Shown here: in pieces, positions 21,407 through 43,626 of the stretch | Layout of the letters: every line of letters begins with the position of its first letter | How positions within the stretch are numbered: position 1 is the stretch's first letter | Assembly (NCBI GenBank): GCA_039815185.1 | Contig: JBCBZT010000048.1 | Location: 1 to 56,801, forward strand | Direction of reading: 5' to 3' | Length of the DNA stretch: 56,801 bases | Source: Cyanobacteria bacterium P01_A01_bin.123 | Lineage (GTDB): Bacteria > Cyanobacteriota > Cyanobacteriia > Phormidesmidales > Phormidesmidaceae | The notes under the pieces: model-generated | Seen by the model: only the letters and a program-made list of their open reading frames with translations | The model's database searches: none | What the model was told of the DNA's origin: nothing | Position numbers and translations under genes: made by a program

Positions 21407-22141
21407 ATGCAGTTAAGAGCTATTGACAGCATGAGTTTCACCACGGTTCAACCGGGTAAGTTGCTGATCATCACCAGCGACTTTGATGCTCGCCCCATGA
21501 GCTATCTAGACGGGGAGAAGCGGCTGGGCTATGAACCTGCAGTGGCCCGTGCTGTTTGCGACAAGCTAGGGTTAGACCCCGTATGGATTAACCATTCCAT
21601 TGGAGATTTCTACACCGAGTTGGCCACGGGCAATTACGATGTGATTTGGTTTAATCAGGCCGTTACCCAAGAAAAACGTGCCTGGGCAGACTTTACCCGA
21701 CCCTATGGGCGTTTTGATGAAGCCGTACTGGTGCTTGAAGAAAGCCCTATCGAAACGCCTGAGAACCTCAAGGGCAAACGCCTGGGCGGGCTTGAAAATC
21801 TCTCAAACGTGGAATTGACCCAACAATTCCCCGATCTGGAATTAGTGACATTCTCAGATAGCGACAACGTGCTGACTACAATGCTAGACGCGCTGAAACA
21901 AGGCGAAATCGATGCCATCATCAGCGATGCTCTAATGTTATTGACAGCAGAGGCGGAGGATCCAGCCTTGCGAGTTGCCTTTCAACTCCCCACTCAGATG
22001 CCTTTTGGTGTCGGTGTTCTCCCGGGTAACCGAGAACTGCTTGAAGCACTCAATGGTGCCCTGAATACGCTAATTGCCGAAGGCACGCTGGCAAAATTGT
22101 GGGCCCAATGGATTCCCTACAAGCCCTGCCCATTTGGTTAA
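21407..22141 (+). CDS. amino-acid ABC substrate-binding-like protein (SBP family 3), no signal peptide
   Basis: PMSY..G...GYE, DFTRPY, LKGKRLG, GEIDAII, LNGAL..L...GTL..L..QW; start 21407 or 21431. Confidence 0.85.
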   Translation: MQLRAIDSMSFTTVQPGKLLIITSDFDARPMSYLDGEKRLGYEPAVARAVCDKLGLDPVWINHSIGDFYTELATGNYDVIWFNQAVTQEKRAWADFTRPYGRFDEAVLVLEESPIETPENLKGKRLGGLENLSNVELTQQFPDLELVTFSDSDNVLTTMLDALKQGEIDAIISDALMLLTAEAEDPALRVAFQLPTQMPFGVGVLPGNRELLEALNGALNTLIAEGTLAKLWAQWIPYKPCPFG

Positions 22142-22156: not shown

Positions 22157-25100
22157 TCACGCTAATAAAGTTTGATAAACCCGTTGGGTTTCAGGGCTGG
22201 GGTCGATGCCCAATTCGTCCCGCAGCATGATCATGCACTGATGATAGGTTTGGATGGCCGCGGCGCGATCGCCATGCTCACCCTGCAATTGCATTAACGT
22301 TTGATAAGTCGATTCTCGTAATGGCTCCGCTTGAAGTAATTGTTGCCCGTAGCGAATGGCTTGGCGGTATTGCTGTTGCTGCTCTAGCAAACGGATGAGC
22401 TCGTCTAATGCATTGAGATAACGTTGATGGAGTTGTTCTCTCGCTTGAACAATCCAGTCATAGTCTAACGAGGGCAATAACTCGCCGCGATATTGGGCGA
22501 TCGCGGCTTTCAACTGGCACTGTTTACCTGTGAGATCCTCAACAGCACGTTGCGCAACCTGATTGAGTGCGGCTTCAAAATCAATCATATCTAACGTGAA
22601 ACTGCCAGCCTTATTCCATTGAATAGTCTTTGCCTCAATTTGAATAAACTGTTCCGCATTGGGTAATGCTTGCCGCAGTTTGAATAAATCTTTGCGGAGA
22701 GCGGTGCGGGCATGGGCATCGTAGATATCAGGATAAAGTACGAACGCAAGGTGCTGACGCGGTTGCGGAGCGTGACGGTGAAGCACCAGGTAAGCTAATA
22801 AGGCCTGCGATCGCTCATTGGTCAAACCCGATAGTGGTTCACCGTTGTAATGGAGGCTAAATCCCCCCAAAACCTGGATTTGCAGCGTCGGTACTGGCTT
22901 TTGATTGGATTGCGCGTCTAATTCGTTTCGCTCCAAGGCCCGTTTGATGATGGAATCCGCCTGAGCTGAACCGGCCCAGGCTAAATCAGGGTTAGTGCCA
23001 GTCGGAACACTTGAATTAGCAGAGGTGTCGGCTTTGGACTGGTGAAACTTCGAACCATGCGATTCAAGCTTTTGGTCTGTCAGAATTGGTGAGAGGGGTG
23101 GGGGGTCAGCGATCGCTTCAGATCGATCAACCGCTCCCAATGCTTTAAGCACAACGAGTTGGCCTGCGGTCAGCCCCTGTACACCTTCGATATTCATCCC
23201 TTCATAGGGTCGGGTAGCTTGGAGCGATCGCAGACAGTCACCCGTGTCACGTTGCCAAAGTTTAATCGTGCCGTCGTTGCTGCCGCTAGCTAGGGTTCGC
23301 CCATCCGCAGTAAACGCCACTTTTTGCACCTGATTCGTATGTCCCACTAAGGTCTGGAGCACTTTTCCGGTCTCTAGATCCCAGAGTTTAAGGGTGGAAT
23401 CGCCGCTACCGCTGGCCAAAATCGGTTCAACTGGGCTAAAGACAACGGATTGCACCTGACTACTGTGGCCGATCAGTACCTGCAACAATTCGCCACTGTC
23501 GCCATTCCATAGACGAATCGTGTGATCGGCGCTGCCGCTAGCAAGGAGCTTACCGTTAGGATGCCAGGCGACGGTCAGCAACCATTTCTCATGGCCTTTT
23601 AGGAGCCGCAGTTGCTGTCCTGTCGTGGTGTCCCATATCCTCAAAGTTTCATCGTCTCCTACACTGGCTAGGCACGGCTGCACCGGATTCCAGGCAATCG
23701 ACCGAATCATCTTAGTGTGTCCCTGTAAGACGTGTCTGCACTCACCCGTACTGACTTGCCAAATTCGAATTGTGCGATCGCCGCTGCCGCTAGCCAGCTG
23801 TTCGCTATGAGGATGCCAAGCTAACGACCGGACCGAATCTGTGTGACCCTGTAGAATCTGGGTCGGTTGTTCCAGTCGCGGCTGGGCGTTCGCACTAACT
23901 TGCCACAGTCGAATCGTTTTGTCGAGACTGCCGCTGGCCAAGTATTGACCATCTGGGCTGAACTCGGTTGTCCGAATCCATAGGGTATGTCCAGTGAGCG
24001 CGGTCAATGTCGCCCCTGTCAGCCAGTTCCAAATTCGGGTAATCCTGTCTGAGCCACCACTGGCCAGCCAAGGTTGACCGGGATGAAAGGCGACTGAAAA
24101 GATTTGATTGGTAAACCCCCGCAAGGTCTTGAGGCATTGCCCTGTGTGTACATCCCAAAACTTGAGGATCTGATCGTCACCCCCACTCGCAAGCTGCTGG
24201 TTGCTGCTAAAAGCCAGTGCCCAAACCCAGTCTTGATGTTCTCTCAGGGTTCGCAAGCAATTGCCTGTCTGGACATCCCAAAGCTTGATAGTTTGACCAG
24301 AACTGCTGCTGCCTAATAGTTGGCCATTGGGGCTGAAATCAAGCGCTAACACCGCATGGACATGGCCTTCCCAGATTTGAGTACAGGTTTGCGTGGGGAC
24401 ATGCCAAAGCCGAATCGTCTGATCTGAGCTGCCACTGGCTAAGGTTTGACTATTGGGATGCCAGGCTACAGCCCAAATGCGATCGGTATGTCCCTGGAGT
24501 GTCGCAAGACAGGTTCCCGCGGGGTAATCCCAAAGTTTCACGGTGCAGTCAGAACTGCCGCTGGCTAAATAGTTTCCATCTGGGCTAAACGCCACAGATC
24601 TTACGGGGGCAGTATGCCCTAATAGCGTTTGGACTGCGTTACCGAATTGAACATCCCAGAGTTTGATAGTGCCATCATGGCTACCGCTGGCTAACTGCCC
24701 GTTGGGATGAAAGGCAATGGTTTGCACATAGTTGGTATGTCCTGACAGTGTTTTAAGTCGCTGTTGGGCAGTAATATCCCACAGATGGATCATGGCGTCA
24801 TCGCCACCGCTCGCTAATAGCTGCCCATCAGGACTAAAGGCAACCGCACCAGCCCAGTCTGTATGGCCCTGGATGATTAAGCGAGATTGATGGTCGGTGC
24901 TGCGCCAAATCCAGATTTGGCCGTTGCTGTCACCCGCAGCAAGCATCTGGCGATCGCAACTAAAGGCAATCGATAAAATGCTGCTGAAGGTTTGGGTAAA
25001 AACCGCGTGGGTCAACTTTGCATGGGCAAAATTGACGCGATGTAGCGTTGTTGTCGGTAGATAGGCGTGGCGAATGCTGAGGTTGGAAAAGTCATAATCC

Positions 25101-26725
25101 GTTAAATCCACGCCGAGATGGCAACAGAGATTGATCAGGTTGCCGCAGCCATAGCCTGAAAGCTGAGTTTCACTGCGGCGTAGGGCAGTCAACAAACGTA
25201 GAATTTGCTGTTCTAATGCGGCTTTAGCGCTAAAGGTTTGGCGGAACTGACTGGCGATGGGTTGCAGAATCAACCGCATTTGGCTGTCTCGAAGATAATC
25301 CTTGAGTGTCGTTTTAATCAGGGCATGTCGCAAGAATAGTGACAGTTCTACCGTGATCAGCTCGGTTGCAATCTGCTGATTGAGTTGATGGGTGGCATAC
25401 TCTATCACAACACCCTGCTGGGTATAATGTCCCGATCGGGTTTCAATCAGGCTTCTCCAGCAAAGCGATTCTAATACTGCCAAGACCTGGTGACGGGTTA
25501 TCGAGGGTTGAATATCATCGACCAGCTCTGAAATCGATGTCCAATCGCGGTTGATTGCCAGCCAATACATGACGGTTTGCTCTAGGGTAGACAACCGGTC
25601 AAACTGTTCATCTAGCAAGCGTTGGAGATCATTGAAGACGAGGGTATTTTCAGCCAGGAATAGCGCGATTTTCCCATCGAACAAACTCTGAATTGAGGTG
25701 GCTACAATCTTCAACGTCAGGGGGCTGCGACCGTAGCGATCGCAGAGTTGATGCTTTTCCGCTCCAGTGCCGATCAACCCTTTAGCATCGATTAGGGATA
25801 ATGCAGCTTCTAAAGATCCCGATAGCTGGAGCGATCGCACTGGAGAATCGATCCCTGCCAATGCCCCTACCACAGCAGGTTTCTCACGGCTGGTGAGGAT
25901 AACACTGCTTTGATGACGGGTTTCTGCCACCCACTGCAGCAGGTCACCGTACCCTTCATAGCCCGCACGAAAATAACCCGCGCGATCGCCGCCATGCAAA
26001 ATTGTCTCCATATTGTCGAGAATCAGCAGACACCGGGACTGCCGCAGCCAGTGGAGTAATCGCCTGGGCGTGGCTTTGCTGTCTTGCCGGTCAGACACAA
26101 AGGGCACTAACTCTTCTAACAGTTCCTCTAGCGGCGGGGCATTACGCAGCGATCGCCAGATAATGTGGGTGAAGGCACACCCTGACCCTGCCGTTAAGAC
26201 TTCTGCAAACTTCGTGGTGAGGGTTGTTTTACCAATGCCGCCCATGCCCAACACGATCACCAGCCGACAGCAGTTGTTCACCACCCATTGCTGTAGCGTA
26301 TCGAGTTCAGCTTGACGCCCATAAAACGTGGCCACATCGGGTGCGGCTCCCCAGTCAAGGTTAGGAGAGCTGTTGATCTGAGATGCAGTTGTCAGGGGGA
26401 TGATTGGCGCGATCGCAGGCGCTTGGGGGGTGCCCTGGGATGAATTTTCCGCTTCCCCCAACTGTCTACAGCGCTGCTCAATCGCGCTGCGAAAGCTGGA
26501 TTTGCTGACTTTTACAGCCAACGCCTGACTCAGAGATTTCCAAAACTTTGGTCCGGCAATGCGGGTGAGATAGCTAACGGCATAACCTGATTTTGCAGCG
26601 ATCGCCTCATAGGTTTGTCCGTACCAAGCCCCTTCGAACAATACCAACTCTACATCATTTAGAAGCCTGCCAAACTCGGCAGACATCGCGTCATTAACCG
26701 ATTTGAGAGCTGTCTTAAAGTCCAT
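22157..26725 (-). CDS. STAND-type regulator 1: N-terminal HTH, NB-ARC, WD40 repeats, C-terminal SARP (wHTH+BTAD)
   Basis: DWGAAPDV..FYGR, GMGGIGKTT, LLILDNME, LTSRE; ~14 GH...WD repeats; LQIQVLGGF...QALLAYLVL, YRGELL...W, EPLRE, ELGIDPSPET. Confidence 0.92.
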   Translation of the reverse strand: MDFKTALKSVNDAMSAEFGRLLNDVELVLFEGAWYGQTYEAIAAKSGYAVSYLTRIAGPKFWKSLSQALAVKVSKSSFRSAIEQRCRQLGEAENSSQGTPQAPAIAPIIPLTTASQINSSPNLDWGAAPDVATFYGRQAELDTLQQWVVNNCCRLVIVLGMGGIGKTTLTTKFAEVLTAGSGCAFTHIIWRSLRNAPPLEELLEELVPFVSDRQDSKATPRRLLHWLRQSRCLLILDNMETILHGGDRAGYFRAGYEGYGDLLQWVAETRHQSSVILTSREKPAVVGALAGIDSPVRSLQLSGSLEAALSLIDAKGLIGTGAEKHQLCDRYGRSPLTLKIVATSIQSLFDGKIALFLAENTLVFNDLQRLLDEQFDRLSTLEQTVMYWLAINRDWTSISELVDDIQPSITRHQVLAVLESLCWRSLIETRSGHYTQQGVVIEYATHQLNQQIATELITVELSLFLRHALIKTTLKDYLRDSQMRLILQPIASQFRQTFSAKAALEQQILRLLTALRRSETQLSGYGCGNLINLCCHLGVDLTDYDFSNLSIRHAYLPTTTLHRVNFAHAKLTHAVFTQTFSSILSIAFSCDRQMLAAGDSNGQIWIWRSTDHQSRLIIQGHTDWAGAVAFSPDGQLLASGGDDAMIHLWDITAQQRLKTLSGHTNYVQTIAFHPNGQLASGSHDGTIKLWDVQFGNAVQTLLGHTAPVRSVAFSPDGNYLASGSSDCTVKLWDYPAGTCLATLQGHTDRIWAVAWHPNSQTLASGSSDQTIRLWHVPTQTCTQIWEGHVHAVLALDFSPNGQLLGSSSSGQTIKLWDVQTGNCLRTLREHQDWVWALAFSSNQQLASGGDDQILKFWDVHTGQCLKTLRGFTNQIFSVAFHPGQPWLASGGSDRITRIWNWLTGATLTALTGHTLWIRTTEFSPDGQYLASGSLDKTIRLWQVSANAQPRLEQPTQILQGHTDSVRSLAWHPHSEQLASGSGDRTIRIWQVSTGECRHVLQGHTKMIRSIAWNPVQPCLASVGDDETLRIWDTTTGQQLRLLKGHEKWLLTVAWHPNGKLLASGSADHTIRLWNGDSGELLQVLIGHSSQVQSVVFSPVEPILASGSGDSTLKLWDLETGKVLQTLVGHTNQVQKVAFTADGRTLASGSNDGTIKLWQRDTGDCLRSLQATRPYEGMNIEGVQGLTAGQLVVLKALGAVDRSEAIADPPPLSPILTDQKLESHGSKFHQSKADTSANSSVPTGTNPDLAWAGSAQADSIIKRALERNELDAQSNQKPVPTLQIQVLGGFSLHYNGEPLSGLTNERSQALLAYLVLHRHAPQPRQHLAFVLYPDIYDAHARTALRKDLFKLRQALPNAEQFIQIEAKTIQWNKAGSFTLDMIDFEAALNQVAQRAVEDLTGKQCQLKAAIAQYRGELLPSLDYDWIVQAREQLHQRYLNALDELIRLLEQQQQYRQAIRYGQQLLQAEPLRESTYQTLMQLQGEHGDRAAAIQTYHQCMIMLRDELGIDPSPETQRVYQTLLA

Positions 26726-26777
26726 GCCAAGGCACTAGAAGCACAGGCTTACGATATGCAACTTCTGACCCAAACCA

Positions 26778-26803
26778 TAGCTGAGATTGTTTAGGGTTTG
26801 CCA
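26778..26803 (-). promoter_or_regulatory. conserved promoter block of STAND-SARP gene 1
   Basis: 20/26 identical to 33559-33584; both blocks lie 53 bp upstream of the respective ATG. Confidence 0.6.
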
Positions 26804-26983
26804 AGCCGAACATAAATCTAAACCACATCCGATCTGAAATCTAGAGTTTTAGCTTAAGGAAAAACTATGGATCTGGATGTAGACACGGTTTATTGATAGC
26901 TTTGGCAGATTCAAATGTATGTCGTGACGGAATATAGAAATTAAAATTCGCCTCAATCAATATATGAGATAATCACCTGAAAA

Positions 26984-27038
26984 TAGTGAGATTTTATGCA
27001 ACGACGCAGACAAATTTTCTGATTAGCCTTGGAGGTGT
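26984..27038 (+). promoter_or_regulatory. conserved 55-bp promoter/operator block, copy 1 (upstream of GNAT)
   Basis: 40/55 ungapped identity with 33608-33662; contains -10-like TAGCCT. Confidence 0.7.
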
Positions 27039-27073
27039 AAACGGGCAGTTGCTGTCCACTTTAGCGAACATTC

Positions 27074-27574
27074 ATGACGGGTCAAGATACCTTTTGGAAC
27101 ACGCGTGGATTAACGTTGCGTCCAGCGGTTGTTGATGATGCTGATGCTGTGAAGCAGCTCTCTTGCATCGCGTTTGAAAAATACATTGATCAAATCGGTC
27201 GCATGCCCCGCGTCATGTTAGCCGATTACCGCCAGGTGATTGCCCGCGATCGCGTTTGGGTCGTTGACGAACGGGCCCAACTGATAGCAGTACTGGTGCT
27301 GGCTATTAACGACACCCACTACCATATCAACAATATTGCCGTGCATCCTAACAGCCAAAGGCAAGGCATTGGGAAGGCACTTTTACTCCAGGCTGAGGCT
27401 CAGTCAATCCATGAAGGTTATGGTGAAATCTGGCTTCACACCAATGAAACCATGATTCACAATATTAGACTCTACACCTCAATTGGCTATCAAGAGATGT
27501 ATCGCAAAGCTTACCCAGGTAGCGAGAGTCTCTACATGAGAAAAACGCTAAAAAATAACGTTGCTGACAGATAG
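27074..27574 (+). CDS. GNAT family N-acetyltransferase
   Basis: NIAVHP..QRQGIGKALL motif A, LHTNETM..N..LY...GY. Confidence 0.9.
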   Translation: MTGQDTFWNTRGLTLRPAVVDDADAVKQLSCIAFEKYIDQIGRMPRVMLADYRQVIARDRVWVVDERAQLIAVLVLAINDTHYHINNIAVHPNSQRQGIGKALLLQAEAQSIHEGYGEIWLHTNETMIHNIRLYTSIGYQEMYRKAYPGSESLYMRKTLKNNVADR

Positions 27575-27966
27575 TGAGCGTAATACCCATTGCTTATTTA
27601 TATAGCCGTAGCCACAAAGCTTTATGCGCTACGGTGAGCCAAATTGCTTGTGTGCTGAGCATCCTAGCGCTACCCGATGCATCAAGCAATCTGGCCAGTG
27701 CCATATTTCAAGAACGCTTAGAGAACGCTCTCGGAACGGTCAAGATCCTATTGTTACGGGTGACATCCGGAGTCGAACAGGAGGTTACGATGGCAACTGC
27801 TAATTCCGCTAGTTCCCTACTTCAGACCAATATTCGATTTGTTGTGTTCAAACGAAAAATGGTGGATGAAATGCTGCTCTGGATAGTTGGGGCTTCCCGT
27901 CAGGGTTGTGCTACCGCTAACGCCGCTCAAGCAAAGACTTTGGCCAAGCTATAAGGATTCACCACC

Positions 27967-29004
27967 ATGTTGATACAACACCTTTTGCATAGGCTTGGAC
28001 GCCCACTGGGGCTGCTAAGCTGCCTTGTTCTCTTGGGCTGTGGCTCATCAAACGCCTCTAGTGCGACTGCCCGTCAGGACACCTGCGCTCCTGAGATCAC
28101 CGAGATCGAATTTGGCATCAGCTCGTCTGAATCACAGAGCAGCTTACAGCAGCAGTGGGAGCCTTTCCTTGCCGTGATGGCTGAAGCAATCGGACGTCCT
28201 GTGGTCGGATTTTATGCGACTGATTATGCTGGCGTGATTGAGGCGATGGGCACAGGTAAGCTACAGGTCGCCTGGTTTGGCGGAAAAGCTTATATCGAAG
28301 CCGCTGAGCGTTCGGGTGCGGAGGCGTTTTTGCGAACCGTCAATACCGATGGCACCCAGGGCTACTATTCTCATCTGGTGACCCATCGAGAGCATCCGAT
28401 GCTGGCCGAAATTGATGTTGAAGTGGGCAACGGTGACGCTTACGTGATCGAACATGCAGACGACCTGACCTTTGCCTTCAACGACCCCAACTCTACCTCT
28501 GGCTATCTGGTTCCCAGCCTCTATGTATTTGCTGAGAATGAGATTAACCCCAACCAAACCTTTCGAGCGTTATTCTTTGCAGGCAGCCACGAAGCGACAG
28601 CACTAGCGGTTGCCCATAACCAGGTGGACGTCGCAACCAACAACAGCGAAACGCTGAAAATGATGGCCCAGGCAGATCCAGAAGCCCGAAATAACATCCA
28701 GGTAATTTGGACGTCGCCGATGATTCCAACAGAACCGATTGCTTATCGTCACGATTTGCCAGACTGTCTGAAAGCAAAAATTAGGACTTTCTTCTATAAC
28801 TATCAAGACAGCGAGATCCTAGAGCCCCTGGGCTGGGCTGGCTTTACCCCTGCAGAAGACAAAGACTGGAACACCATTCGAGAATTGGATATTGGCAATC
28901 AGATTCTGGAGATTCAGAATAATCAGAGTCTCAATGATCAGGCCAAACAGCAAAAACTTGATCAGCTCAACCGACAGCTTGAGGTGCTTCAGCAAGGCGG
29001 TTAA
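27967..29004 (+). CDS. phnD: phosphonate ABC transporter substrate-binding lipoprotein
   Basis: Lipobox LLGC; ATDYAGVIEAM, GYYS.L, FNDPNSTSGYLVP, GSHEA, DVATNN, IWTSP.IP. Confidence 0.88.
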   Translation: MLIQHLLHRLGRPLGLLSCLVLLGCGSSNASSATARQDTCAPEITEIEFGISSSESQSSLQQQWEPFLAVMAEAIGRPVVGFYATDYAGVIEAMGTGKLQVAWFGGKAYIEAAERSGAEAFLRTVNTDGTQGYYSHLVTHREHPMLAEIDVEVGNGDAYVIEHADDLTFAFNDPNSTSGYLVPSLYVFAENEINPNQTFRALFFAGSHEATALAVAHNQVDVATNNSETLKMMAQADPEARNNIQVIWTSPMIPTEPIAYRHDLPDCLKAKIRTFFYNYQDSEILEPLGWAGFTPAEDKDWNTIRELDIGNQILEIQNNQSLNDQAKQQKLDQLNRQLEVLQQGG

Positions 29005-32000
29005 TTGAGCAGGGCACGATACATTTCCTGGGTGGTCGGGCTGGGATCTATCCCGAGTTCTTCTCGCAGAATGCTCATGCACTGCTGATAAATCTGGAGA
29101 GCCATAGCGCGATCGCCCAGCCGGTTACAAAGCTGCATCAGTTGTTGATAGGTCGGTTCTCTCAACGGATCAAGACGCAGCAGTTGTTCGGCATACGGTA
29201 ACGCGGTTTGATATTTTCCCGCTTGGTTCAGGGTTTCAACTAACTGTGCTAAAGCCTGTATAAATCGCTGATGTAAGGTTTCTCGAACCGGGAGTATCCA
29301 CTCATCATCAAGTGAGGGTAGCAACCCTCCCGTATAAAGCGCAACCGCTTGCTCTAACTGTTGTCTTGCCGTAGTGGTATCTGAACTGGTTTCTGCAGCG
29401 GTAAGCGATTGTTCAAATGTGGCGACATCTAGCCAGAAGGGTGAGCTCGTCTGCCATCCGAGCATGTTGGTATTGACCTGGAGATAATCATCAGCGTTGG
29501 GCAAATGACGGCGCAAATTATGGAGTTCTTTGCGGAGATTGGTGCGGCCTTGCCCATCTGGAGAGTCAGGCCAGAGTGAGTGAGCGATTTGCTGACGCGA
29601 TTGAGATGTATGTCGATAGGTCAGAAGATAAGCCAATAACGATTGGGTGCGGCTGGATCCAAGACTGTGGATAGCCTGGTGGTTATAGGTCAAACTCAAA
29701 TTCCCAAACAGTCGAATCACCAGGGGCGGATTGGCGGATACTGACAGACTGGAGACATGACTGGGAAGCGCAGCGTCTTCAGAGCTGGAAGGTGCTGCGG
29801 CTTTGGAATCGGTTGGCTGGAATGGCCCAAAGTTATCAGGCTGATGAGCAGACGTTGTGACGGCTCCTAATGCTTTCAGGTTTAGCTGCTGGGCTTCGGT
29901 GAGTCCCCTGACATCGGTGATGTTCATCCCTTCATAGGGACGTTGGGGGTGCATGACTTTGAGGCAGTTTCCTGCGATCGCATCCCAAAGCCGAATCGTT
30001 TCGTCAGAACCACCACTGGCAATGGTTCTGCCATCTGGACTTAAGGCCATGTGCCAAATCAGATTGGTGTGACCTGCGAGGGTATGGAGGCACTGACCGT
30101 CACTGACACGCCAAATGCGAACCGTTTGGTCGTGCGAACTGCTGATCAGAGTCTGCCCGTTGGGTCGCCAGGCCAAGGCCCAAACCGAATTTTGATGGCC
30201 TTTTAGGGTTTGCAGCAGGTTGCCCGTGGGTATCTCCCACAATTTGATATCGCCGTTGGTGCTGCCAGTGGCTAAGGTTTTGCCGTCGGGGCTAAACGCC
30301 ATCTGCCAGACCCAGTTATCTGGATCGTGAAGCACCTTTAGGCAACCGCCGGTTTCAGGTTGCCAAAGTCTTAAGGTTTGATCATAGCTGCCACTGGCAA
30401 GTAGCTGTCCGTTTGGGCTCCAGGCGATGGTGCGGACAAAGTTTTGATGTCCGGCGAGAACATTAAGGCAACGCCCCGTCTCAACATCCCAAAGTCTGAC
30501 CGTCTGGTCGTGGGAGGCACTGGCTAAAATTGCCGCCGTGGGATGCCAGGCAATTCCCCAGATGGTGCCCTGATGACCTTTCAACACAGCATCAACTTGT
30601 TTTGTGATCAGACTCCAAAGCCGAATCGTCTGATCATCGCCGCTGCTGGCTAGGATTTGGCCATTATTGCTCCAGGCGATCGCCCAGATGGGTTGAGTAT
30701 GACCTGCCAGTGCCATCAAGCATTTGCCGGTGCGAGTATCCCATAACCGGACTAGGCGATCGTGGCCGCCACTCGCGAGGCGTTGATCGGTGGGGTGCCA
30801 TGCCAAGGCTTGAATGGCATTACGGTATCCCTGCAAAATCTTGAGCGAGGCATCAGCCCGAGCACTCCACAGGCGCACGGTTTGGTCAAAAGAACCGCTG
30901 GCTAGGACTTCGGTATCATCTTGCGGCTGATTGGTTTGGAATTCTGATAACGTATCGGACTGCATCCGGCGAGCGGGCTGCCACTGCACCGCACGCACTG
31001 CATTTTGATGGGCTTGCAGAATGCGCAGGCACCGTCCTGTCTGAGGATCCCACAATCGAATGCTTTGGTCATCACCACCGCTGGCGAGGGCTTGACCATC
31101 GGCACTCCAGGAAACACTCCAAATACATTTTTGATGCCCCTGTAGGGTTTGCAGACACTCTCCGGTTAGACTATCCCAAATAAAAATGCTGCCATCCTTG
31201 GTTCCACTTGCGAGTTGTTGCCCATCTGGACTCCAGGCGATCGCAAAGATAGCATCCCCTACGTCGATCACTCGCAAACACTCCCCGCTAGAGACCTTCC
31301 ATACTTTGAGGGTTTGGTCAGCGCTGCCTGTTGCTAAGACGTCGGTGTTCCCATCTGCTGGGTAGGGACACCAAGCCAGCGCCGATGTTTTATTGGTGTG
31401 TGCTGCTATTGTCTTGATGCAGTTACCCGTTTCGGGGTTCCAGAGGCGAATAGCCCCATCTACACTGCTACTTGCGATCAGCTTTTGATCTGGGCTCCAC
31501 CCCACAGCTCGCACCCGACTGTCGGGACAGTCTAGGGTGCGTAAATGCTGGCCTGTCCGTGCGTCCCAAAGTTTAAGCGTGCCGTGCTCATCGTCGCAAC
31601 CGCTTGCCAGGATTTGACCGTCAGGGCTAAAGGCTAGCGACCAAACCCAGTTATTGTGCCCCTGCAAAGTAAGACAGGGCTGATCTAAATTGCCAACCCG
31701 CCATAGCCAAATCTGACCGCTGGTATCAGCAGCAGCCAAGAGCTGGGCATCGGAACTAAAGGTAACGGCAAGAACACTACCAAAGGTTTGAGTAAACGCA
31801 GCATCGACAAAGGCGGCACCCGCGAAATTGACTTGATGTAGGGTGAGATTTTGCAGATAGGCATGGTGGAGCGACAAGTTGGAGAAATTCATCCCGGCCA
31901 TGTCCATTTCAAGATCGAGGCACAGGTTTAGCAAGTTGCCCGCACCATAGCCAGAAAACGAGTTTTGTGATTGTCGCAACCCGGTTAAAATCCGCAACAC

Positions 32001-33506
32001 TTGCTGCTCAAGGACGGCCTGAGTCTCAAACGTTTTAGCGAATTGGTTGGCAATCGGCTTTAGAATCAGGCGCCTTTGGCTCAGGCGAATATAGTCTTTG
32101 ACCGTGGTTTTGATCAGCGCGTGATGTAGAAATAAAGCCAGATTTGCCGTATTCAGCTCTTCAACAACCTGCTGGATGAACTGAGCTGTGACATATTCCA
32201 TCACGACAGGCTGCTGAGTGTAGCGTCCGCCCTGTTTTTCAATCAGCGATCGCCAACTCAGCGACTCTAGGCTCTCTAACACTTGCATCCGCGACACCGA
32301 CGGCTGAATGTCGTCCACGAGTTCTGTAATAGAAGTCCATTCGCGGTTGATCGCGAGCCAAATCATGACCGTCTGTTCAAGTGCTGTTATGCGTGCAAAC
32401 TGCTGATCAAGCAACCGCTGCAATCCATTAAATACCAACGTATCTTCAGCGAGGAATAAGGTAATATCGCCGTCAAAAAGGCTTTGAATTGAGGTGGCCA
32501 CAATCTTAAGTGCCAGTGGACTATGGCCATAGCGATCGCCCAATTGCTGCTTTTCTGCCGCTGTGCCCATTAATCCTTTCGCATCCAGCAAGGTTTGGGC
32601 AGCTTCCGGCGAGCCTAAGAGCTGGAGCGATCGCACGGGTAACGCTATCCCTTCTAATGCACCCACAATGGCCGGTTTCTCGCGGCTAGTGAGTACCACA
32701 CAGCTTTGGTGGCGCGTCTCAGCCACGAGTTTCAGCAGGTCTCCATACTCGTCATAGTCCATGCGGAAGTAGCCCGCGCGATCGCCCCCCTGCAAAAGAG
32801 TTTCCAGATTGTCCAGAATCAATAGGCAGCGAGACTGTCGCAACCAGTGGAGCAATCGTTTTGGCGTGGCCTCAGTCTCTTGCTGATCCGAAACAAATGA
32901 CACGATCTCTGTCAATAATTCATGGAGTGGCGGGGCATTGCGCAGCGATCGCCAGATGATATGGGTAAACGGACAGCCGACCTGTGTTGTCAAAGCTTCC
33001 ACAAATTTCGCCGTCAGGGCAGTTTTGCCAATTCCCCCCATGCCTAACACGGCTACCAATCGACAGCATTGACTTTGCGGCGCTGCCGGCACCTCATTCG
33101 CCACCCACTGTCCAAGGGTTGCGATCTCCTGCGCTCGGCCAAAGAAAACAGAGACATCAGGGGCTTCGCCCCAGTCGGTTTGAGGGCAGGGTGCAGAAGC
33201 GGGGGCAGTGGGTAGGGGGGGATGAGGGGCGGGTCGTAACGGGGTGCGCCCCTGCTGTTCTATTGCAGCCCGAAAGCTGGTTTTGCTGACCTTTGCACCC
33301 AAGGCTTGGCTGAGGTGTTTCCAAAACCTGGGTCCGACGATGCGGGTGAGATAGCTGGTGGCATAGCCTGATTCTGTAGCAATGACCTCATAGGTTTTCC
33401 CGTGCCAGGCTCCTTTAAACAGCGCTAGCTCCACATCGTTCAATTGCCTGCCAAATTTGGCAGACATCGAATCATTAACAAGTTTGAGGACGGTCTCAAG
33501 GTCCAT
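29001..33506 (-). CDS. STAND-type regulator 2: N-terminal HTH, NB-ARC, WD40 repeats, C-terminal SARP (wHTH+BTAD)
   Basis: Paralog of 22157-26725; start MDLETVLK by alignment with MDFKTALK; GMGGIGKT, ILDNLE, WD40 array, IRLFGNL...QSLLAYLL, DPLRE, ELGIDPSP. Confidence 0.92.
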   Translation of the reverse strand: MDLETVLKLVNDSMSAKFGRQLNDVELALFKGAWHGKTYEVIATESGYATSYLTRIVGPRFWKHLSQALGAKVSKTSFRAAIEQQGRTPLRPAPHPPLPTAPASAPCPQTDWGEAPDVSVFFGRAQEIATLGQWVANEVPAAPQSQCCRLVAVLGMGGIGKTALTAKFVEALTTQVGCPFTHIIWRSLRNAPPLHELLTEIVSFVSDQQETEATPKRLLHWLRQSRCLLILDNLETLLQGGDRAGYFRMDYDEYGDLLKLVAETRHQSCVVLTSREKPAIVGALEGIALPVRSLQLLGSPEAAQTLLDAKGLMGTAAEKQQLGDRYGHSPLALKIVATSIQSLFDGDITLFLAEDTLVFNGLQRLLDQQFARITALEQTVMIWLAINREWTSITELVDDIQPSVSRMQVLESLESLSWRSLIEKQGGRYTQQPVVMEYVTAQFIQQVVEELNTANLALFLHHALIKTTVKDYIRLSQRRLILKPIANQFAKTFETQAVLEQQVLRILTGLRQSQNSFSGYGAGNLLNLCLDLEMDMAGMNFSNLSLHHAYLQNLTLHQVNFAGAAFVDAAFTQTFGSVLAVTFSSDAQLLAAADTSGQIWLWRVGNLDQPCLTLQGHNNWVWSLAFSPDGQILASGCDDEHGTLKLWDARTGQHLRTLDCPDSRVRAVGWSPDQKLIASSSVDGAIRLWNPETGNCIKTIAAHTNKTSALAWCPYPADGNTDVLATGSADQTLKVWKVSSGECLRVIDVGDAIFAIAWSPDGQQLASGTKDGSIFIWDSLTGECLQTLQGHQKCIWSVSWSADGQALASGGDDQSIRLWDPQTGRCLRILQAHQNAVRAVQWQPARRMQSDTLSEFQTNQPQDDTEVLASGSFDQTVRLWSARADASLKILQGYRNAIQALAWHPTDQRLASGGHDRLVRLWDTRTGKCLMALAGHTQPIWAIAWSNNGQILASSGDDQTIRLWSLITKQVDAVLKGHQGTIWGIAWHPTAAILASASHDQTVRLWDVETGRCLNVLAGHQNFVRTIAWSPNGQLLASGSYDQTLRLWQPETGGCLKVLHDPDNWVWQMAFSPDGKTLATGSTNGDIKLWEIPTGNLLQTLKGHQNSVWALAWRPNGQTLISSSHDQTVRIWRVSDGQCLHTLAGHTNLIWHMALSPDGRTIASGGSDETIRLWDAIAGNCLKVMHPQRPYEGMNITDVRGLTEAQQLNLKALGAVTTSAHQPDNFGPFQPTDSKAAAPSSSEDAALPSHVSSLSVSANPPLVIRLFGNLSLTYNHQAIHSLGSSRTQSLLAYLLTYRHTSQSRQQIAHSLWPDSPDGQGRTNLRKELHNLRRHLPNADDYLQVNTNMLGWQTSSPFWLDVATFEQSLTAAETSSDTTTARQQLEQAVALYTGGLLPSLDDEWILPVRETLHQRFIQALAQLVETLNQAGKYQTALPYAEQLLRLDPLREPTYQQLMQLCNRLGDRAMALQIYQQCMSILREELGIDPSPTTQEMYRALLN

Positions 33507-33558
33507 TCTCTTTGAGGCTAAAGGGATACAAGGATTGAGAGGGAGCTGACACAAGTCC

Positions 33559-33584
33559 TACCTGAGATTATATGAGGTTTGTCA
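33559..33584 (-). promoter_or_regulatory. conserved promoter block of STAND-SARP gene 2
   Basis: Minus strand contains TATAAT; 20/26 identical to 26778-26803. Confidence 0.6.
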
Positions 33585-33607
33585 TAGGTGAGGCGGTTGT
33601 CTCCAAT

Positions 33608-33662
33608 TAGTGAGTTTTTATGTAACGACAGTCACAAAATCCTCCGTTAGCGTTGGAAGTGT
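33608..33662 (+). promoter_or_regulatory. conserved 55-bp promoter/operator block, copy 2 (upstream of CMD gene)
   Basis: 40/55 ungapped identity with 26984-27038; contains -10-like TAGCGT. Confidence 0.7.
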
Positions 33663-33757
33663 TCGCAGGATAAATCCTCAACATAAGGGATTAAAACCTG
33701 TTGTTTTCCGATGCTGACTTAGTTTTTGTTCAGAACTTTAATTAGGAGTAAATAGCC

Positions 33758-34237
33758 ATGACTGCAATCCAACCTTGCGGTAACCCTTGTTCACGTGAAA
33801 TTGTTCAGGAAAAGATCAAAAAAGCGCTTTGCGGTGGTGTCCCGGGTTTGTTTTCCGATCGCGACCCCCAAAAAACAATGCCCGATAGCGTCTTGAATTT
33901 TGAATGGGAACTGTTCAGACACTTTGAATTGGCCCCTGTGGTTGAAGCGGATTATCCAGCGCCCAATCCAGTGATTCCCCTTAAGTATCGCCAGTTGATG
34001 GGAATTGCCATCCACGCTGAAACGAAGTGTAAATTCTGTGCGCCCTTTCATATTGCCCTGGCGAAGGTGTTTGGTGCGACTGATGCAGAAATTCAAGAAG
34101 CTGCGAACTATGCCAAGCACAGCGTTGGCATCAGTGCTTATCTCAACGGACTCGACTTCGATTTAGATGAATTTTTGAAAGAACTGGATGGGCTGGTCGC
34201 CTGCTTAAAAACCAAGATTCCACGCACTGGAGTTTAG
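33758..34237 (+). CDS. carboxymuconolactone decarboxylase / AhpD-like protein
   Basis: IPLKYRQLMGIAIHAETKCKFCAPFH..LAK..GATDAEIQEA (CxxC..H); RBS AGGAG. Confidence 0.88.
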   Translation: MTAIQPCGNPCSREIVQEKIKKALCGGVPGLFSDRDPQKTMPDSVLNFEWELFRHFELAPVVEADYPAPNPVIPLKYRQLMGIAIHAETKCKFCAPFHIALAKVFGATDAEIQEAANYAKHSVGISAYLNGLDFDLDEFLKELDGLVACLKTKIPRTGV

Positions 34238-34315
34238 GTCTTTTAGCCGCTATCGACGGCTCAGCCAAGGGTGAGATCGCAATTCCTATCTTGTGATACT
34301 CACGACAGTTTCACT

Positions 34316-34346
34316 GTCATGTCACTGCAAATTGCAGTGACATGAC
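34316..34346. promoter_or_regulatory. perfect 15-bp inverted repeat upstream of the repeat-protein gene
   Basis: GTCATGTCACTGCAA-A-TTGCAGTGACATGAC. Confidence 0.7.
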
Positions 34347-34397
34347 GACAATTTTGACTGCAAAGAACTACCGCTCATTGAGCAAGGAGATATCTCT

Positions 34398-34955
34398 ATG
34401 AAACGCCTCTTTTTTCTGCTCACCAGCACTTGTCTCATCACCCCATTACTGACCGCTGCAACAACAGCTAGCGCTAAAACCCAACTCCTGAACACCAATC
34501 TTGCCCACACAGGTGATGTTGTATCTGGGCTGCTACAACCTGTATTCCCGATCGTGATCGACTCGAACATCATTACCTATAACGGTGACTCTCTGACGGG
34601 GCAAGGTTCAAGCTCATTCTCAAAGGCACGACTTGCGACCGACTCGGACATCATTACCGTGAACGGTGCCTCCCTGACTGGTCAACGCTCCAGCCCATCC
34701 CCAAAGGGACTATCACTTAACGGCATCTCCCTAGAGGGGCAAACCGAGTCTAAAGGGCTGAGATTTCAAGGTACTGCTTTGGATGGCCAAACTGAGTCTA
34801 AGGGCTTCACGCTCAATTCGACGTCTCTAGACGGTCAAAGGATTGAGCCAAAGGGGGCAAGGATTCAAGGTACTGCTTTGGACGGCCAAACCGAGTTCAA
34901 TGGCTTCACCATCAACTCAACGTCTCTAGACGGTCAAAGCGCGATCGCTCAATAG
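34398..34955 (+). CDS. secreted protein with seven [NQ][GS]x[SA]LxGQ repeats
   Basis: RBS AAGGAG; signal peptide MKRLFFLL...ASA; repeats NGDSLTGQ, NGASLTGQ, NGISLEGQ, QGTALDGQ x2, NSTSLDGQ x2. Confidence 0.85.
   Translation: MKRLFFLLTSTCLITPLLTAATTASAKTQLLNTNLAHTGDVVSGLLQPVFPIVIDSNIITYNGDSLTGQGSSSFSKARLATDSDIITVNGASLTGQRSSPSPKGLSLNGISLEGQTESKGLRFQGTALDGQTESKGFTLNSTSLDGQRIEPKGARIQGTALDGQTEFNGFTINSTSLDGQSAIAQ
34560..34938 (+). repeat. coding tandem repeats (81-nt pair, then 48/51-nt units forming a 99-nt higher-order repeat)
   Basis: GACTCG.ACATCATTACC twice 81 nt apart; TTCAAGGTACTGCTTTGGA and ACGTCTCTAGACGGTCAAAG each twice 99 nt apart. Confidence 0.85.
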
Positions 34956-35069
34956 ATGCGAGTCTGCGCCAGCAGCGTGTCAAAGATCCGCGCTGAAACT
35001 CCCCAGGGACGGGAAATCTCTCGTCCCTGGACCAAACCTTTGCATTCAATTCATATCCCAGCGATTGCC

Positions 35070-35819
35070 ATGCAACACCACACGATTGAGTTACTGCTGC
35101 TAATTAGCGGTTGCAGCGTAGCGCTGACTGCCTTGCCCGCTCAAACCCAGCCTTCAACGGCCTTTGAAATTGGCACTACTCTCACGACTTCAAACGTTCA
35201 GGGTAACGCTCGCACGATCAAAATTCTTGATGCTGACGTTGTCTTAAATGCTTCTGGTTATGAAACGGTGCTCCATACCGTTGCCTACCAGAACTCAGAA
35301 CAGCTGTGGCAACCCCTATGCAATCCCAATGTTGAGGAAGACACCCGTGCGGTTGCCCTTCCTGGCCAGTGGGACAGCACTGGTTCGTACCTTGACAACA
35401 ATGAAATCACCTTTGCCTGCACCAGTGGCGTCATCGGGAAATGTGTTTTATGGGGCTACCATCCCCAACAAACAGTCGAGGGCTACTCGTTACAAGACTT
35501 GCACCAAGCCTGTACCCGCATGGCCCGCGCCGATTACTGCGGTGATGGTGTCAGCCATACTCGCGACGGCACTGAAATCGATATATACGATCGCCTCTCC
35601 ATTCAGATGCCCACTACCCACAGCGCCATGGCCTTTGAAGCGGCTTGGGGCCCCGACGGTGCAGTGTGGATCAGCCGCACCCGTTGGCCAGAGGCGATCA
35701 CCTATGTACACGCAAACTGCCCAGAACGCCTGCAAGCTGAGGGTTTAAGCCCAGAAGAAATCCAAGCTCGATTGCCCAACGCCCTGATTTTCAACGATTC
35801 CTTTGTGCGTTCTCGTTAG
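35070..35819 (+). CDS. secreted ADYC domain protein
   Basis: FACTSGVIGKCVLWGY.P, HQACTRMARADYCGDG.SHT.DGT.ID.YD, FEAAWGPDGA; signal-like N-terminus from ATG 35070. Confidence 0.85.
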   Translation: MQHHTIELLLLISGCSVALTALPAQTQPSTAFEIGTTLTTSNVQGNARTIKILDADVVLNASGYETVLHTVAYQNSEQLWQPLCNPNVEEDTRAVALPGQWDSTGSYLDNNEITFACTSGVIGKCVLWGYHPQQTVEGYSLQDLHQACTRMARADYCGDGVSHTRDGTEIDIYDRLSIQMPTTHSAMAFEAAWGPDGAVWISRTRWPEAITYVHANCPERLQAEGLSPEEIQARLPNALIFNDSFVRSR

Positions 35820-35884
35820 CCAGGGCAGGGTTCAGCAATACCCAATATTCACTCATACCAAACCTTCATTCAAGGAAAATCACA

Positions 35885-36109
35885 ATGATAAATAAAGTCA
35901 TGCAAGCTGTATTGATCGCGATCGCGATCGCAGCAACAGTGCATCGAACCCAAACGGCCCGAGCCGTTGCCTTGATTCATCCCGCTTGTGCGATCGCAGA
36001 ATACCCCCAAGAGGCGCAAGATGATGATACTCAAACCGGCAATGCATCACCGAACGACCCCTTCACCTGTCAAGACGATGATTGGGAAAAGATTCAGTAC
36101 GAAGATTAG
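35885..36109 (+). CDS. small putatively secreted acidic protein
   Basis: RBS AAGGA; hydrophobic N-terminus ending ARA; two Cys; acidic tail. Confidence 0.55.
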   Translation: MINKVMQAVLIAIAIAATVHRTQTARAVALIHPACAIAEYPQEAQDDDTQTGNASPNDPFTCQDDDWEKIQYED

Positions 36110-37492: not shown

Positions 37493-39316
37493 CTATGAAA
37501 GGATATAGTTTCGAGCCTGAGTATTAAACAAGTGGGCATAAGTACCCTGTTGGCTCATGAGTTCAGCATGGGTACCGCTTTCAACAATACGGCCATGCTC
37601 CATCACATAAATACGATCAGCCATTCTGACAGTAGATAAGCGGTGGGTAATTAAAATTGCTGCCTGGTCTTGAATCAGCTCGCGGAATGATTTGAACACC
37701 TCATACTCAGCTTGAGGATCCATAGCACTGGTGGGTTCATCGAGTACAATGAGCTGGGAATCTCGCAAAAACGCTCGTGCCAGCGCCACCTTTTGCCACT
37801 GGCCAATGCTGAGTTCTTCACCATCTTGAAAAAGCTTACCGAGTCTGGTGTCATACCCTTCAGGCAAGTGGGTTATGACCTCATGTGCCCCAGCTCGTTT
37901 GGCAGCTGAAATAATGTGACTGTCTTGCTGTGGTAGACGAATATTACCCAGCCAAATATTGTCGTGAGCCGTAAGGTGATATTTGGCATAGTCTTGAAAG
38001 ATCACACTGATGTGCTGACGAAGATTGTTTACATCCATGTCACGCAGATCAACACCATCAAGGGTAATGCGCCCTTGGGTAGGATCGTAGAGTCGACACA
38101 GTAGCTTAATCAGTGTTGTCTTACCTGAGCCGTTTTCCCCAACTAGGGCAATAGTTTCACCAGGTTTAACCACTAATGAAATATCCCGAAGTGCTTGCCG
38201 AGGTGTGTCATCATATCTAAAACTTACCTGCTCAAACACAATTCCCTGGCGCATCGGCATGGGAACCATCTTAGGTACAGCAGGACTCGCAATCTTAGGG
38301 TTAAGATCGAGAAACTCGTACAAATTAGCAAGGAATAGATTATCTTCATAAAGGCCAGATACGCCAGAAACCATCCCTTTCAGAGAGGTTTGTCCCCGCT
38401 GTAGCGCCTGATGATAAAGGACTAAATCTCCTAGATTAAGCGAACCATAAAGTGTCTGATACAGAATAAAACCATAGATAGCCCCAACTAAAATACCCGT
38501 TAGCATTTGAGCTATAAAAAACGCCATCGAGCGTCGTGTTATCAGCCGCAGTTTGGCATTGTAAAGCTTGCTCCTGAGGTGATTAAACCGCTGACTAAAT
38601 AGGTGGCCCAAATCAAACAGGCGAATCTCTTTCGCAAACATCTCCCCGATGATTAACCAAGAAAGATACATCGACTCCCTTTCTATTGGTGTCCAGGCCC
38701 GCTGCCATCGATATAGTTTTCGAGTGTAGGTTAATCGCACCAGCACCGTAGGAATTGCCGCCACCAGTAATACACCGACAATACCCCAATGGAGGGTTAA
38801 TAGCAGCCCTACCATTGCCACTAAAGAAATACTACTTTGCCCAACCTGAGCTAACCGCGCAAGGATTTGGTTAGGGCGATGGGTGGCTTCTTGCTGGGCA
38901 CGCTGTAGGGTGTCGTGATAGCGGGGATTCTCATAATAGGCCAGATCAATTTCGATAGATTTGGTATGGAGAATACTGCGCATGTAATCAGTCACCCGCT
39001 GAGCTTGAGCCGTATTGACCAGTTCAGAGAAGGCTTGGCAGAATAGTGTCACTAGGGCAATTGCAGCAACCCCAATTAATAAGGGAGTAATTTGGCTTAA
39101 CACAAGCTGCGGATCAACCGCAGTTAATCCTTCTGTGAGCACATCAATTAGCAGCTTGACCAAATAAATTGAGGCTAATGGCAACAGACCCTGTAGGGTA
39201 ATCAACCCTAACCTAACAATCGTCCACCTAGGGCTACTTTGCCAAACCAGTCGCAGGGCTGGGATCAATCGCTGAGTATTTTGGGCAAAGGCACTGAGTT
39301 TGCGGACAATTCTCAT
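37493..39316 (-). CDS. ABC exporter (TMD+NBD), lasso peptide cluster
   Basis: GENGSGKTT, LSIGQWQKVALARAF, VLDEPTS; N-terminal TM domain. Confidence 0.92.
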   Translation of the reverse strand: MRIVRKLSAFAQNTQRLIPALRLVWQSSPRWTIVRLGLITLQGLLPLASIYLVKLLIDVLTEGLTAVDPQLVLSQITPLLIGVAAIALVTLFCQAFSELVNTAQAQRVTDYMRSILHTKSIEIDLAYYENPRYHDTLQRAQQEATHRPNQILARLAQVGQSSISLVAMVGLLLTLHWGIVGVLLVAAIPTVLVRLTYTRKLYRWQRAWTPIERESMYLSWLIIGEMFAKEIRLFDLGHLFSQRFNHLRSKLYNAKLRLITRRSMAFFIAQMLTGILVGAIYGFILYQTLYGSLNLGDLVLYHQALQRGQTSLKGMVSGVSGLYEDNLFLANLYEFLDLNPKIASPAVPKMVPMPMRQGIVFEQVSFRYDDTPRQALRDISLVVKPGETIALVGENGSGKTTLIKLLCRLYDPTQGRITLDGVDLRDMDVNNLRQHISVIFQDYAKYHLTAHDNIWLGNIRLPQQDSHIISAAKRAGAHEVITHLPEGYDTRLGKLFQDGEELSIGQWQKVALARAFLRDSQLIVLDEPTSAMDPQAEYEVFKSFRELIQDQAAILITHRLSTVRMADRIYVMEHGRIVESGTHAELMSQQGTYAHLFNTQARNYILS

Positions 39317-40230: not shown

Positions 40231-40270
40231 ATTTTTCTTCCTTTGTGATGTATTGGCGCTATAGATAAGG

Positions 40271-40298
40271 TGTTGTAGTAGCCTAGGCTACTACAACA
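40271..40298. repeat. perfect 28-bp palindrome between precursor and kinase
   Basis: TGTTGTAGTAGCCT|AGGCTACTACAACA. Confidence 0.9.
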
Positions 40299-40390
40299 TC
40301 TCATATCACCTGCTGCAGCAGATGACTTAAATCATTCGGAACCCCCTATGGGGTAGCACGATCACCCTATAGATCGTATTTGACTCCTTG

Positions 40391-40410
40391 TGCTGTAATC
40401 GTTTACAGCA
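40391..40410 (-). terminator. hairpin immediately after precursor stop codon
   Basis: TGCTGTAA-TCGT-TTACAGCA, 6 bp downstream of TAG; no U-tract. Confidence 0.5.
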
Positions 40411-40416
40411 AGCAAT

Positions 40417-43441: not shown

Positions 43442-43626
43442 AGTCACTCTAACTAAAAAATCATAATTGAACGTGAATATATCGCACGTCAAGCCTCCTC
43501 CTATATTCGACAAGAAATCTATAAATCATGAGGATTAGCATCGAACTTATTAAAAGTTTATATTAGTGAAAAGACTCAGATTACAAATCTCACTATCTTA
43601 TAGTATGCCTGTTTTTAATCTATTAT

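Follow-up and report, generated by a model that had tools for sequence, protein, structure and literature searches.

Two paralogous STAND–WD40 proteins of a cyanobacterium as candidate activators with two predicted DNA-binding heads

What do two paralogous proteins of about 1500 residues control, and with which end do they read DNA? The question is raised by a 56,801-nucleotide stretch of Cyanobacteria bacterium P01_A01_bin.123 (contig JBCBZT010000048.1; "the window" below means this whole stretch), in which regulator 1 (22157..26725, minus strand, 1522 aa) and regulator 2 (29001..33506, minus strand, 1501 aa counted from the ATG that aligns with Met1 of gene 1; the start in the open reading frame (ORF) list is TTG 33554) each lie head-to-head with another gene. 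Proteins of the NB-ARC/WD40 kind abound in cyanobacteria; they are reported to be the nearest bacterial kin of Apaf-1 and have mostly been discussed as immune or death receptors. A preliminary description of the locus had instead taken both genes for activators whose C-terminal SARP domain reads two conserved intergenic blocks. We think it likely, though some way from settled, that they are MalT-like activators with two heads, in which an N-terminal helix-turn-helix (HTH) domain would read TGAG boxes before the GNAT and CMD genes and the C-terminal SARP would read GGAACG repeats before phnD, a reading drawn from sequence comparison.

Two regulators and their intergenic blocks

The paralogy and the combination of STAND, WD40 and SARP elements given in that description are borne out. 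The two proteins are identical at 800 of 1559 aligned columns (51%) and share one architecture, in which an HTH_VMAP-M9 domain is followed by a STAND ATPase (NACHT and NB-ARC, both above cut-off), 13 WD40 stretches and a C-terminal SARP. BTAD is matched in both genes and Trans_reg_C, weakly, in gene 2 only. In regulator 1 the domain matches place the SARP (winged HTH plus BTAD) at 22160..22891 on the minus strand, and the C-terminus of gene 2 matches AfsR with an E value of 4e-12, as well as EmbR. As in other STAND NTPases, a P-loop precedes a repeat sensor, and the Walker A, Walker B and sensor-1 motifs are intact in both proteins (in regulator 1, GMGGIGKT at residue 160, LLILDN at 233 and TSRE at 278). 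Identity between the two is 72% in the HTH and 71% in the nucleotide-binding (NB) domain, against 45% in the WD40 region and 48% in the SARP, a pattern that points to a conserved DNA-reading end, a diverged sensor and re-wired targets. The WD40 regions of both genes and of a SARP-less paralogue elsewhere in the genome (C70:41642) are 43–47% identical to one another.

Three features were absent from the preliminary description: a SARP-type promoter upstream of phnD, a 74-bp repeat that separates the region-1 blocks, and the N-terminal HTH. The HTH occupies 26456..26725 (minus strand) in regulator 1, where the recognition helix starts at residue 50. The first ~90 residues match Atlas clusters of HTH_VMAP-M9 at 0.91–0.92 (clusters that are 73–100% PF26355), as members of that family do; they matched nothing in Pfam, in a set scanned without the PF26355 model. 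A structural model built from a 97-sequence alignment (A1) reached a pLDDT of 94.9, and its best structural matches are HTHs of the NarL/RcsB/LuxR type (NarL: Z 6.9, root-mean-square deviation 2.7, 65 residues aligned), so that a LuxR/NarL-like DNA-binding fold is predicted. The single-sequence fold (pLDDT 65) and its Foldseek search were uninformative, and a sequence search of alignment A1 and the NB-ARC region against the PDB returned nothing significant. Residues 51–56 read SYLTRI in both genes and SYLTRV in C70:41642, and the domain is present in 252 of 401 genomes of the class.

Two conserved blocks do lie between the regulators and their neighbours, as had been reported. Block B (26981-27038 and 33605-33662) aligns with a score of 40 and 76% identity and block A (26765-26803 and 33546-33584) with a score of 28, against a mean of 17.6 and a maximum of 26 in 500 dinucleotide shuffles; block A alone is thus barely above chance. 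Taken with its boxes, block B constitutes a predicted HTH-dependent promoter, at 26964..27029 (plus strand) for the GNAT gene and at 33588..33653 (plus strand) for the CMD gene, scoring 20.7 and 29.7 bits, respectively, with the position weight matrix (PWM) described below. In the first copy, boxes at 26964 and 26986 (a 22-bp spacing) are followed by TTTTATGCA-ACGACG, 17 bp and a -10 element TAGCCT at 27024; the second has boxes at 33588 and 33610, a -35 element ACGACA and a -10 element TAGCGT at 33648.

The core of block A is a degenerate TGAG-box pair in the first copy (26781..26798, plus strand; a predicted distal operator near the start of regulator 1) and two TGAG boxes 10 bp apart in the second (33562..33579, plus strand), where the minus strand carries an overlapping TATAAT some 60 nt ahead of the start of regulator 2. 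Its left half occurs near the start of 14 of 114 family genes compared with 92 of 5192 genes. We rejected the view that block A is merely the regulator's own -10 element as a full account, since the block is kept at GNAT promoters without an adjoining regulator in four of five genomes; it is likely a distal operator that may also autoregulate the regulator gene. The distances between blocks A and B gave no evident helical phasing, and a generic scan for sigma-70 promoters and terminators gave no more matches than shuffled sequence did and recovered none of the three promoters predicted here. No RNA holder is listed for the region.

Distribution of the HTH-type promoter and its boxes

To follow the blocks beyond the window we collected 140 loci, which take in 20 of the 71 SARP matches and the greater part of the 150 matches listed out of 709. 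With 14 loci of the same genome there were 148 genes, of which 144 had sufficient upstream sequence; dereplication left 114. A PWM built on 22 loci outside this genome (TTTYC-TGTAAnGACA, 17 bp, TAnnnT; threshold at least 18 bits) found a promoter upstream of 26 of the 114 family genes and of none on the opposite strand (0/114). Within the genome itself only 4 of 5192 genes have such a match upstream, namely genes 1 and 2 and SARP-less HTH paralogues in C70 and C121.

Which end of the protein the blocks belong to can be judged from relatives that have lost one or the other. The SARP-less paralogue C70:41642, which faces genes resembling precursors of ribosomally synthesised and post-translationally modified peptides (RiPPs), has both blocks, and paralogues C44:60779 and C121:133739 have the core in common with different boxes. 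Conversely, nine HTH-less homologues (L121-L129, genus code g17) keep NB-ARC (66–71% identical to gene 1), WD40 (70% in the three compared) and SARP, and all nine lack the promoter, the best match in 8–10 kb being at most 9.5 bits; these proteins are likely a SARP-only derivative. The blocks thus lie beside SARP-less paralogues and are missing beside HTH-less SARP homologues, and on this distribution they follow the N-terminal, LuxR-like HTH and not the SARP. Moreover, the boxes sit upstream of the -35 element, whereas SARP sites lie between -35 and -10. The earlier proposal of a one-component STAND activator with a shared operator stands as a sequence-based prediction, except that the operator's reader would be the HTH; the C-terminal 270 residues are predicted not to shift the blocks.

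If the HTH reads the boxes, the two should change together. Across 30 dereplicated pairs, the strongest co-variation of the hexamer that precedes the T run is with T54 (z 10.6), V71, S51 (z 8.4) and S74. Identity at positions 51, 54, 55 and 56 predicts box identity with the rest of the domain removed (partial r 0.61, one-base shift allowed), and the triple 51/54/55 gives a partial r of 0.40 that none of 3000 random triples reached (maximum 0.397). N51 pairs with CATA in 10 of 10 cases against 0 of 20 otherwise, with five changes of each on the NB-ARC tree (27 rows). Boxes also recur upstream (54 observed against 18.7 expected in 30 loci), clustered at 21–25, 31–37 and 54–58 bp, and each window promoter has two boxes 22 bp apart, in keeping with the multiple direct-repeat sites upstream of the core promoter that mark MalT and its LAL family. 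Finally, helix–box predictions were written beforehand for genomes found by the promoter alone; eight of 11 came true, against 2 among the 29 unpredicted cells. The test drew on 60 of the 80 matches; two helices could not be read, and the predicted locus L228 fell outside it. These genomes are kin, so p-values overstate the result. As far as such comparisons reach, the repeated box changes with the recognition helix of the HTH, and the recognition code is partial.

A different division of labour would make the HTH a repressor or modulator and leave the TGTAAnGACA-N17-TAnnnT core to an alternative sigma factor or to NtcA. The core does stay constant while the boxes vary, sigma region-4 domains match the HTH model with Z values of 5–6, and several core copies read GTA-N8-TAC, which is the NtcA site. 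However, the TAC half-site is not conserved in the gene-1, L029 and L040 promoters, and it would overlap the -35 element; the core, by the whole-genome scan, is not spread through the genome as the regulon of a sigma factor or NtcA would be; and boxes at a near-fixed distance upstream of a poor -35, as found here, are the layout of activation. We regard this alternative as very unlikely.

The SARP-type promoter before phnD and the proposed switch

The SARP appears to have a motif of its own. Upstream of methyltransferase genes in related islands we found three (A/G)GAACG repeats with an 11-bp period, 10 nt before TAnnnT, and a PWM from 16 such sites of other genomes gives 37.8 bits, rank 2 in the genome, at 27711..27754 (plus strand), 212 nt before phnD. 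This predicted SARP-dependent promoter has three repeats with the 11-bp period and a -10 element TATTGT. The genome holds six intergenic SARP-type sites of at least 24.5 bits, compared with no match of at least 20 bits in 4 Mb of Markov null sequence. The exact pattern occurs in 13 of 173 genomes of the family, all within the 47 that have a close SARP match (0/126 in the others; the reversed control gave 0). By locus, the promoter accompanies 9 of 13 HTH+SARP genes, 4 of 9 HTH-less genes and 2 of 7 SARP-first genes, counts that include some training loci; it is also found in 2 of 37 loci in which no SARP was seen, both of them genes with open frames cut short. The geometry is that of AfsR, whose operator has direct repeats of 11 bp immediately before the -10 element (PMC10936776): the repeats before phnD centre at about -28.5, compared with -29.5 for the afs box in the same paper. 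Such repeats between -35 and -10 are present at 27711-27754 and not in blocks A and B. An ORF at 27574-27954, which overlaps this promoter, has no family and no match in related islands, and we treated it as probably spurious.

Further SARP-type promoters lie at C108:43913-44020, C108:58597, C115:185971 and C113:257441, including one back-to-back pair between a methyltransferase gene and an RTX-repeat gene; these additional sites are probably a SARP regulon.

Might the fused SARP be a passenger, or auto-inhibitory, with only the N-terminal HTH acting on DNA and SARP-first AAA/TPR proteins serving the GGAACG promoters? The genome encodes two such SARP-first ATPases (C115 and C121), whose helices, RTNLRKELHHLR and RTNLRKALSHLR, resemble that of the fused SARP; one SARP-type promoter adjoins the C115 gene, and SARP-first genes also occur in the islands of G424, G426 and G427. 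Yet in the HTH-less homologues the fused SARP is the sole recognisable DNA-binding domain, and four of the nine carry the promoter in their locus, three of them within about 200 nt of the stop codon. Nor does a passenger fit with a helix that is invariant across nine gene-2-clade proteins. We judge this alternative unlikely.

The history of the targets bears on how regulators and promoters are connected. Orthologues of the GNAT gene are found in 5 of 172 other genomes of the family, with block B kept in all five and block A in four; the SARP-type site after GNAT is kept in three (G424, G427 and G430) and not in G426 and G530. The exact TGAG-type promoter occurs in only 6 of 173 genomes, namely this one and those five. 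None of the five GNAT orthologues faces a regulator: four lie directly opposite a methyltransferase gene, and in G424 such a gene is found about 0.8 kb off. Each of these genomes has instead a regulator 1–14 kb downstream that points towards the GNAT-phnD unit, and these regulators group with gene 2 and not with gene 1 (SH-aLRT 99, NB-ARC and SARP trees). The retention of the GNAT promoter without a head-to-head regulator, together with a gene-2 orthologue in all five genomes, indicates that regulators and targets are likely a small trans-acting regulon and not two private cassettes.

The preliminary description had proposed the latter, with the SARP reading both blocks and a regulator plus bidirectional promoter duplicated as a unit, each copy with a private divergent operon. 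Each gene does lie head-to-head with one that carries both blocks, and the placing of gene 1 beside GNAT and of gene 2 beside CMD (also in G530) shows reshuffling. Block B, however, travels with GNAT, and four-fold degenerate sites are only 29–42% identical in the NB (53/148), WD40 (35/122) and SARP (18/43) regions, that is, near-saturated. With the two genes in different clades, these values also led us to reject the 76%-identical block as a neutral remnant of recent duplication; genes 1 and 2 are likely old lineages. Both the joint duplication and the SARP's reading of the blocks are thus highly improbable. The part of the earlier proposal that does find support, in the comparison of neighbours and promoters, is that outputs change between lineages: in G530 the gene opposite a broken CMD is a regulator of the gene-2 clade, accompanied by block A and a SARP-type promoter, and of the eight loci examined for ADYC units two have the family promoter, with a different box.

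The two-headed switch that we favour would work as follows. What is observed is the architecture with its intact Walker motifs, the two motif types and where they occur, and the co-variation; gating and activation are modelled on MalT and AfsR. A ligand would bind the WD40 propellers, ADP would be exchanged for ATP and the protein would oligomerise. The HTHs, now arrayed, would bind cooperatively to direct-repeat boxes spaced by about 11 or 22 bp, with the proximal box at about -50 to -45 beside the weak -35 (ACGACA), and RNA polymerase would be recruited, while the SARP heads would bind between -35 and -10, as AfsR does. Since genes 1 and 2 combine the same helix residues 51–56, and C70:41642 nearly the same ones, with diverged WD40 regions, they may feed different signals into one promoter set, and cross-talk among the three is predicted. 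More broadly, and here the chances seem evenly poised, HTH_VMAP-M9 STAND-WD40 proteins, which occur in most of the cyanobacterial genomes sampled, would be a large and so far unrecognised family of one-component activators with a re-programmable helix–box code, one branch would have acquired the SARP as its second head, a single ligand-triggered oligomer of that branch would drive two structurally different promoter classes, and paralogues differing in their propellers would act as an OR gate on shared targets. With promoters and operators named and a partial code in hand, function becomes directly testable with reporters, which would also offer a way to screen propeller ligands.

Several observations weigh against this reading. 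No promoter lies within 700 nt of 88 of the 114 dereplicated HTH genes, and just three of the eight dereplicated HTH+SARP genes have it directly upstream. There is some circularity in the family count, since 22 of the 26 positives trained the PWM and the seed pattern came partly from the same genome, and all nine HTH-less loci are from one genus. A first run of the co-variation analysis (columns 52/55/56/57, fixed register) gave a partial r of 0.22 for the helix compared with 0.45 for the rest of the domain; the helix columns used above were picked after seeing the mutual information scan, and columns 71 and 74, outside the helix, also score highly. Only two independent N51/CATA pairs fall on well-supported (starred) branches, too few for a sign test, a pair test of S51+T54 against GAG yielded one pair and no signal, and the written predictions failed in G535, G537 and G539. 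For the HTH model, Foldseek found nothing at E<=0.001 and the fold Z scores are middling. Four of the five GNAT genomes belong to one genus, and CMD orthologues (3 of 172 genomes) keep block B in none of three. The four-fold identity of the HTH (14/25) leaves room for a more recent exchange of the 5' ends, and the SARP-first ATPases of C115 and C121 could serve the phnD promoter.

Relatives, neighbouring genes and further loci

In their proposed working the regulators resemble two known systems, but they fail the domain-order test of both families. MalT of E. coli (LAL family) has an HTH of the LuxR type, as is predicted here. It is a STAND ATPase gated by a repeat sensor that oligomerises on multi-site promoters, with the HTH C-terminal (PMC10427625). 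Here the HTH is instead N-terminal (the effector position of Apaf-1) and the C-terminus is a SARP, so that there is a second DNA-binding head; the sensor is WD40 rather than TPR-like, and helix and box vary from paralogue to paralogue. AfsR of Streptomyces coelicolor is a large SARP (SARP-NOD-TPR) with a homologous SARP and a similar operator geometry. The regulators have the OmpR-type winged HTH and BTAD of a SARP, but C-terminally, after WD40 propellers, and not N-terminally before NOD/TPR (NF053617 is far below cut-off); they further differ from AfsR in their three GGAACG repeats, their cyanobacterial host and their targets, which are methyltransferase, RTX-repeat, solute-binding protein and CMD genes and not afsS-like ones.

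The closest relatives in architecture are the cyanobacterial Apaf-1-like NB-ARC/WD40 proteins, which have the core and the N-terminal HTH_VMAP-M9 family in common with the regulators and are treated as immune-like in PMC13581612; VMAP-M regions are treated as likely invader sensors in PMC7159879. The regulators could on this ground be anti-phage or cell-death NLRs (Avs/bNACHT/VMAP-like) beside which the motifs are incidental: the STAND-WD40 architecture is Apaf-1-like, cyanobacteria are reported to hold the closest homologues of Apaf-1 (PMC13581612), the HTH family takes its name from VMAP conflict systems, and Avs and bNACHT proteins share the STAND core and repeat sensor. PADLOC, however, matched no family in any of the seven sequences scanned; no nuclease, TIR or protease effector domain is present, the output domains being predicted to bind DNA rather than to be toxic; and no MoxR, vWA or VMAP-C gene of the vWA-MoxR-VMAP ternary system is found among the 24 proteins of 14917-45567. 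The helix–box co-variation would have no role in such a system, which leaves only the faintest of chances for it, while phage-triggered transcription stays compatible with the two-headed switch. Outside their supplements, the available parts of PMC7159879, PMC8195603, PMC13581612 and PMC11119718 name no operator or target for this regulator clade, and those of PMC7159879 and PMC13581612 no C-terminal SARP fusion. A literature search over article listings and the openings of abstracts found no description of these operators or of a STAND protein with two distinct DNA-binding heads.

Around the regulators, family matches confirm the neighbours first named. The GNAT acetyltransferase gene (27074..27574, plus strand) is head-to-head with regulator 1 and the CMD/AhpD-family gene (33758..34237, plus strand) with regulator 2. 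phnD (27967..29004, plus strand), convergent with regulator 2, encodes a phosphonate/phosphate-binding protein (TIGR03431 above cut-off) without adjoining ABC partners. CMD is followed by a perfect 31-bp palindrome (34316..34346), a possible hairpin or operator with two BLAST matches in the genome, probably its own site on both strands. Next come, all on the plus strand, a 185-residue repeat protein (34398..34955; GxxLxGQ-like repeats, signal-peptide-like N-terminus, no family found), an ADYC-domain protein (34956..35819; likely start ATG 35073, then a signal-peptide-like stretch) and a 74-aa ORF (35885..36109; hydrophobic N-terminus, no family found). GNAT-phnD and CMD-repeat-ADYC are only putative operons, given the promoter motif of phnD itself and the palindrome after CMD. 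The 74-bp repeat between the blocks of intergenic region 1 (26819..26892; TAAACC...GGTTTA ends) resembles a miniature inverted-repeat transposable element and has 150 BLAST matches in the genome, 89 of them of at least 60 nt, with another copy at 16875-16936 of the window. At 21407-22141 a lone family-3 solute-binding protein gene converges on regulator 1, much as phnD does on regulator 2; neither an HTH-type nor a SARP-type promoter was found before it. A cluster at 37493-45567, which we take to be of the lasso-peptide type, encodes an ABC transporter, an HprK-like kinase, an asparagine-synthase-like cyclase, a transglutaminase-like B2, a PqqD B1 and a nucleotidyltransferase.

A scan of about one third of GTDB with the HTH-type promoter pattern returned 120 loci, 40 of which had only 300-nt flanks; 38 are cyanobacterial by title, and a divergent HTH gene was seen in nine of these and in 0 of the 82 others. 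Downstream of HTH-type promoters we find RTX-repeat proteins in 11 of 46 scanned, as well as C39 transporters, DUF4278, redox enzymes and small precursor-like peptides. With RiPP precursors and secreted RTX-repeat proteins among the targets, the family may give handles on silent biosynthetic genes and orthogonal parts.

Several genomes carry multiple HTH-type promoter copies away from the regulator (L145/L146, L154, L185, L179/L193/L248/L252 and L194), as trans regulons before bacteriocin-like precursors, C39 transporters and CHAT/TPR genes. In G000:C70, between about 5 and 49 kb, three HTH-NB-ARC-WD40 genes (10576, 23485 and 41642) are each head-to-head with precursor genes, which we take to be of the double-glycine type and the next gene to be LanM-like, an arrangement that suggests control of RiPP clusters by the C70 regulators. 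NB-ARC-WD40 paralogues with other N-termini (C121:173010, C70:23485, C70:10576 and C82:65112-67973) have direct repeats of their own upstream, CTTAAGT-like in 5, 4 and 2 copies where the mean is 0.41, and also TCACTGAC-like.

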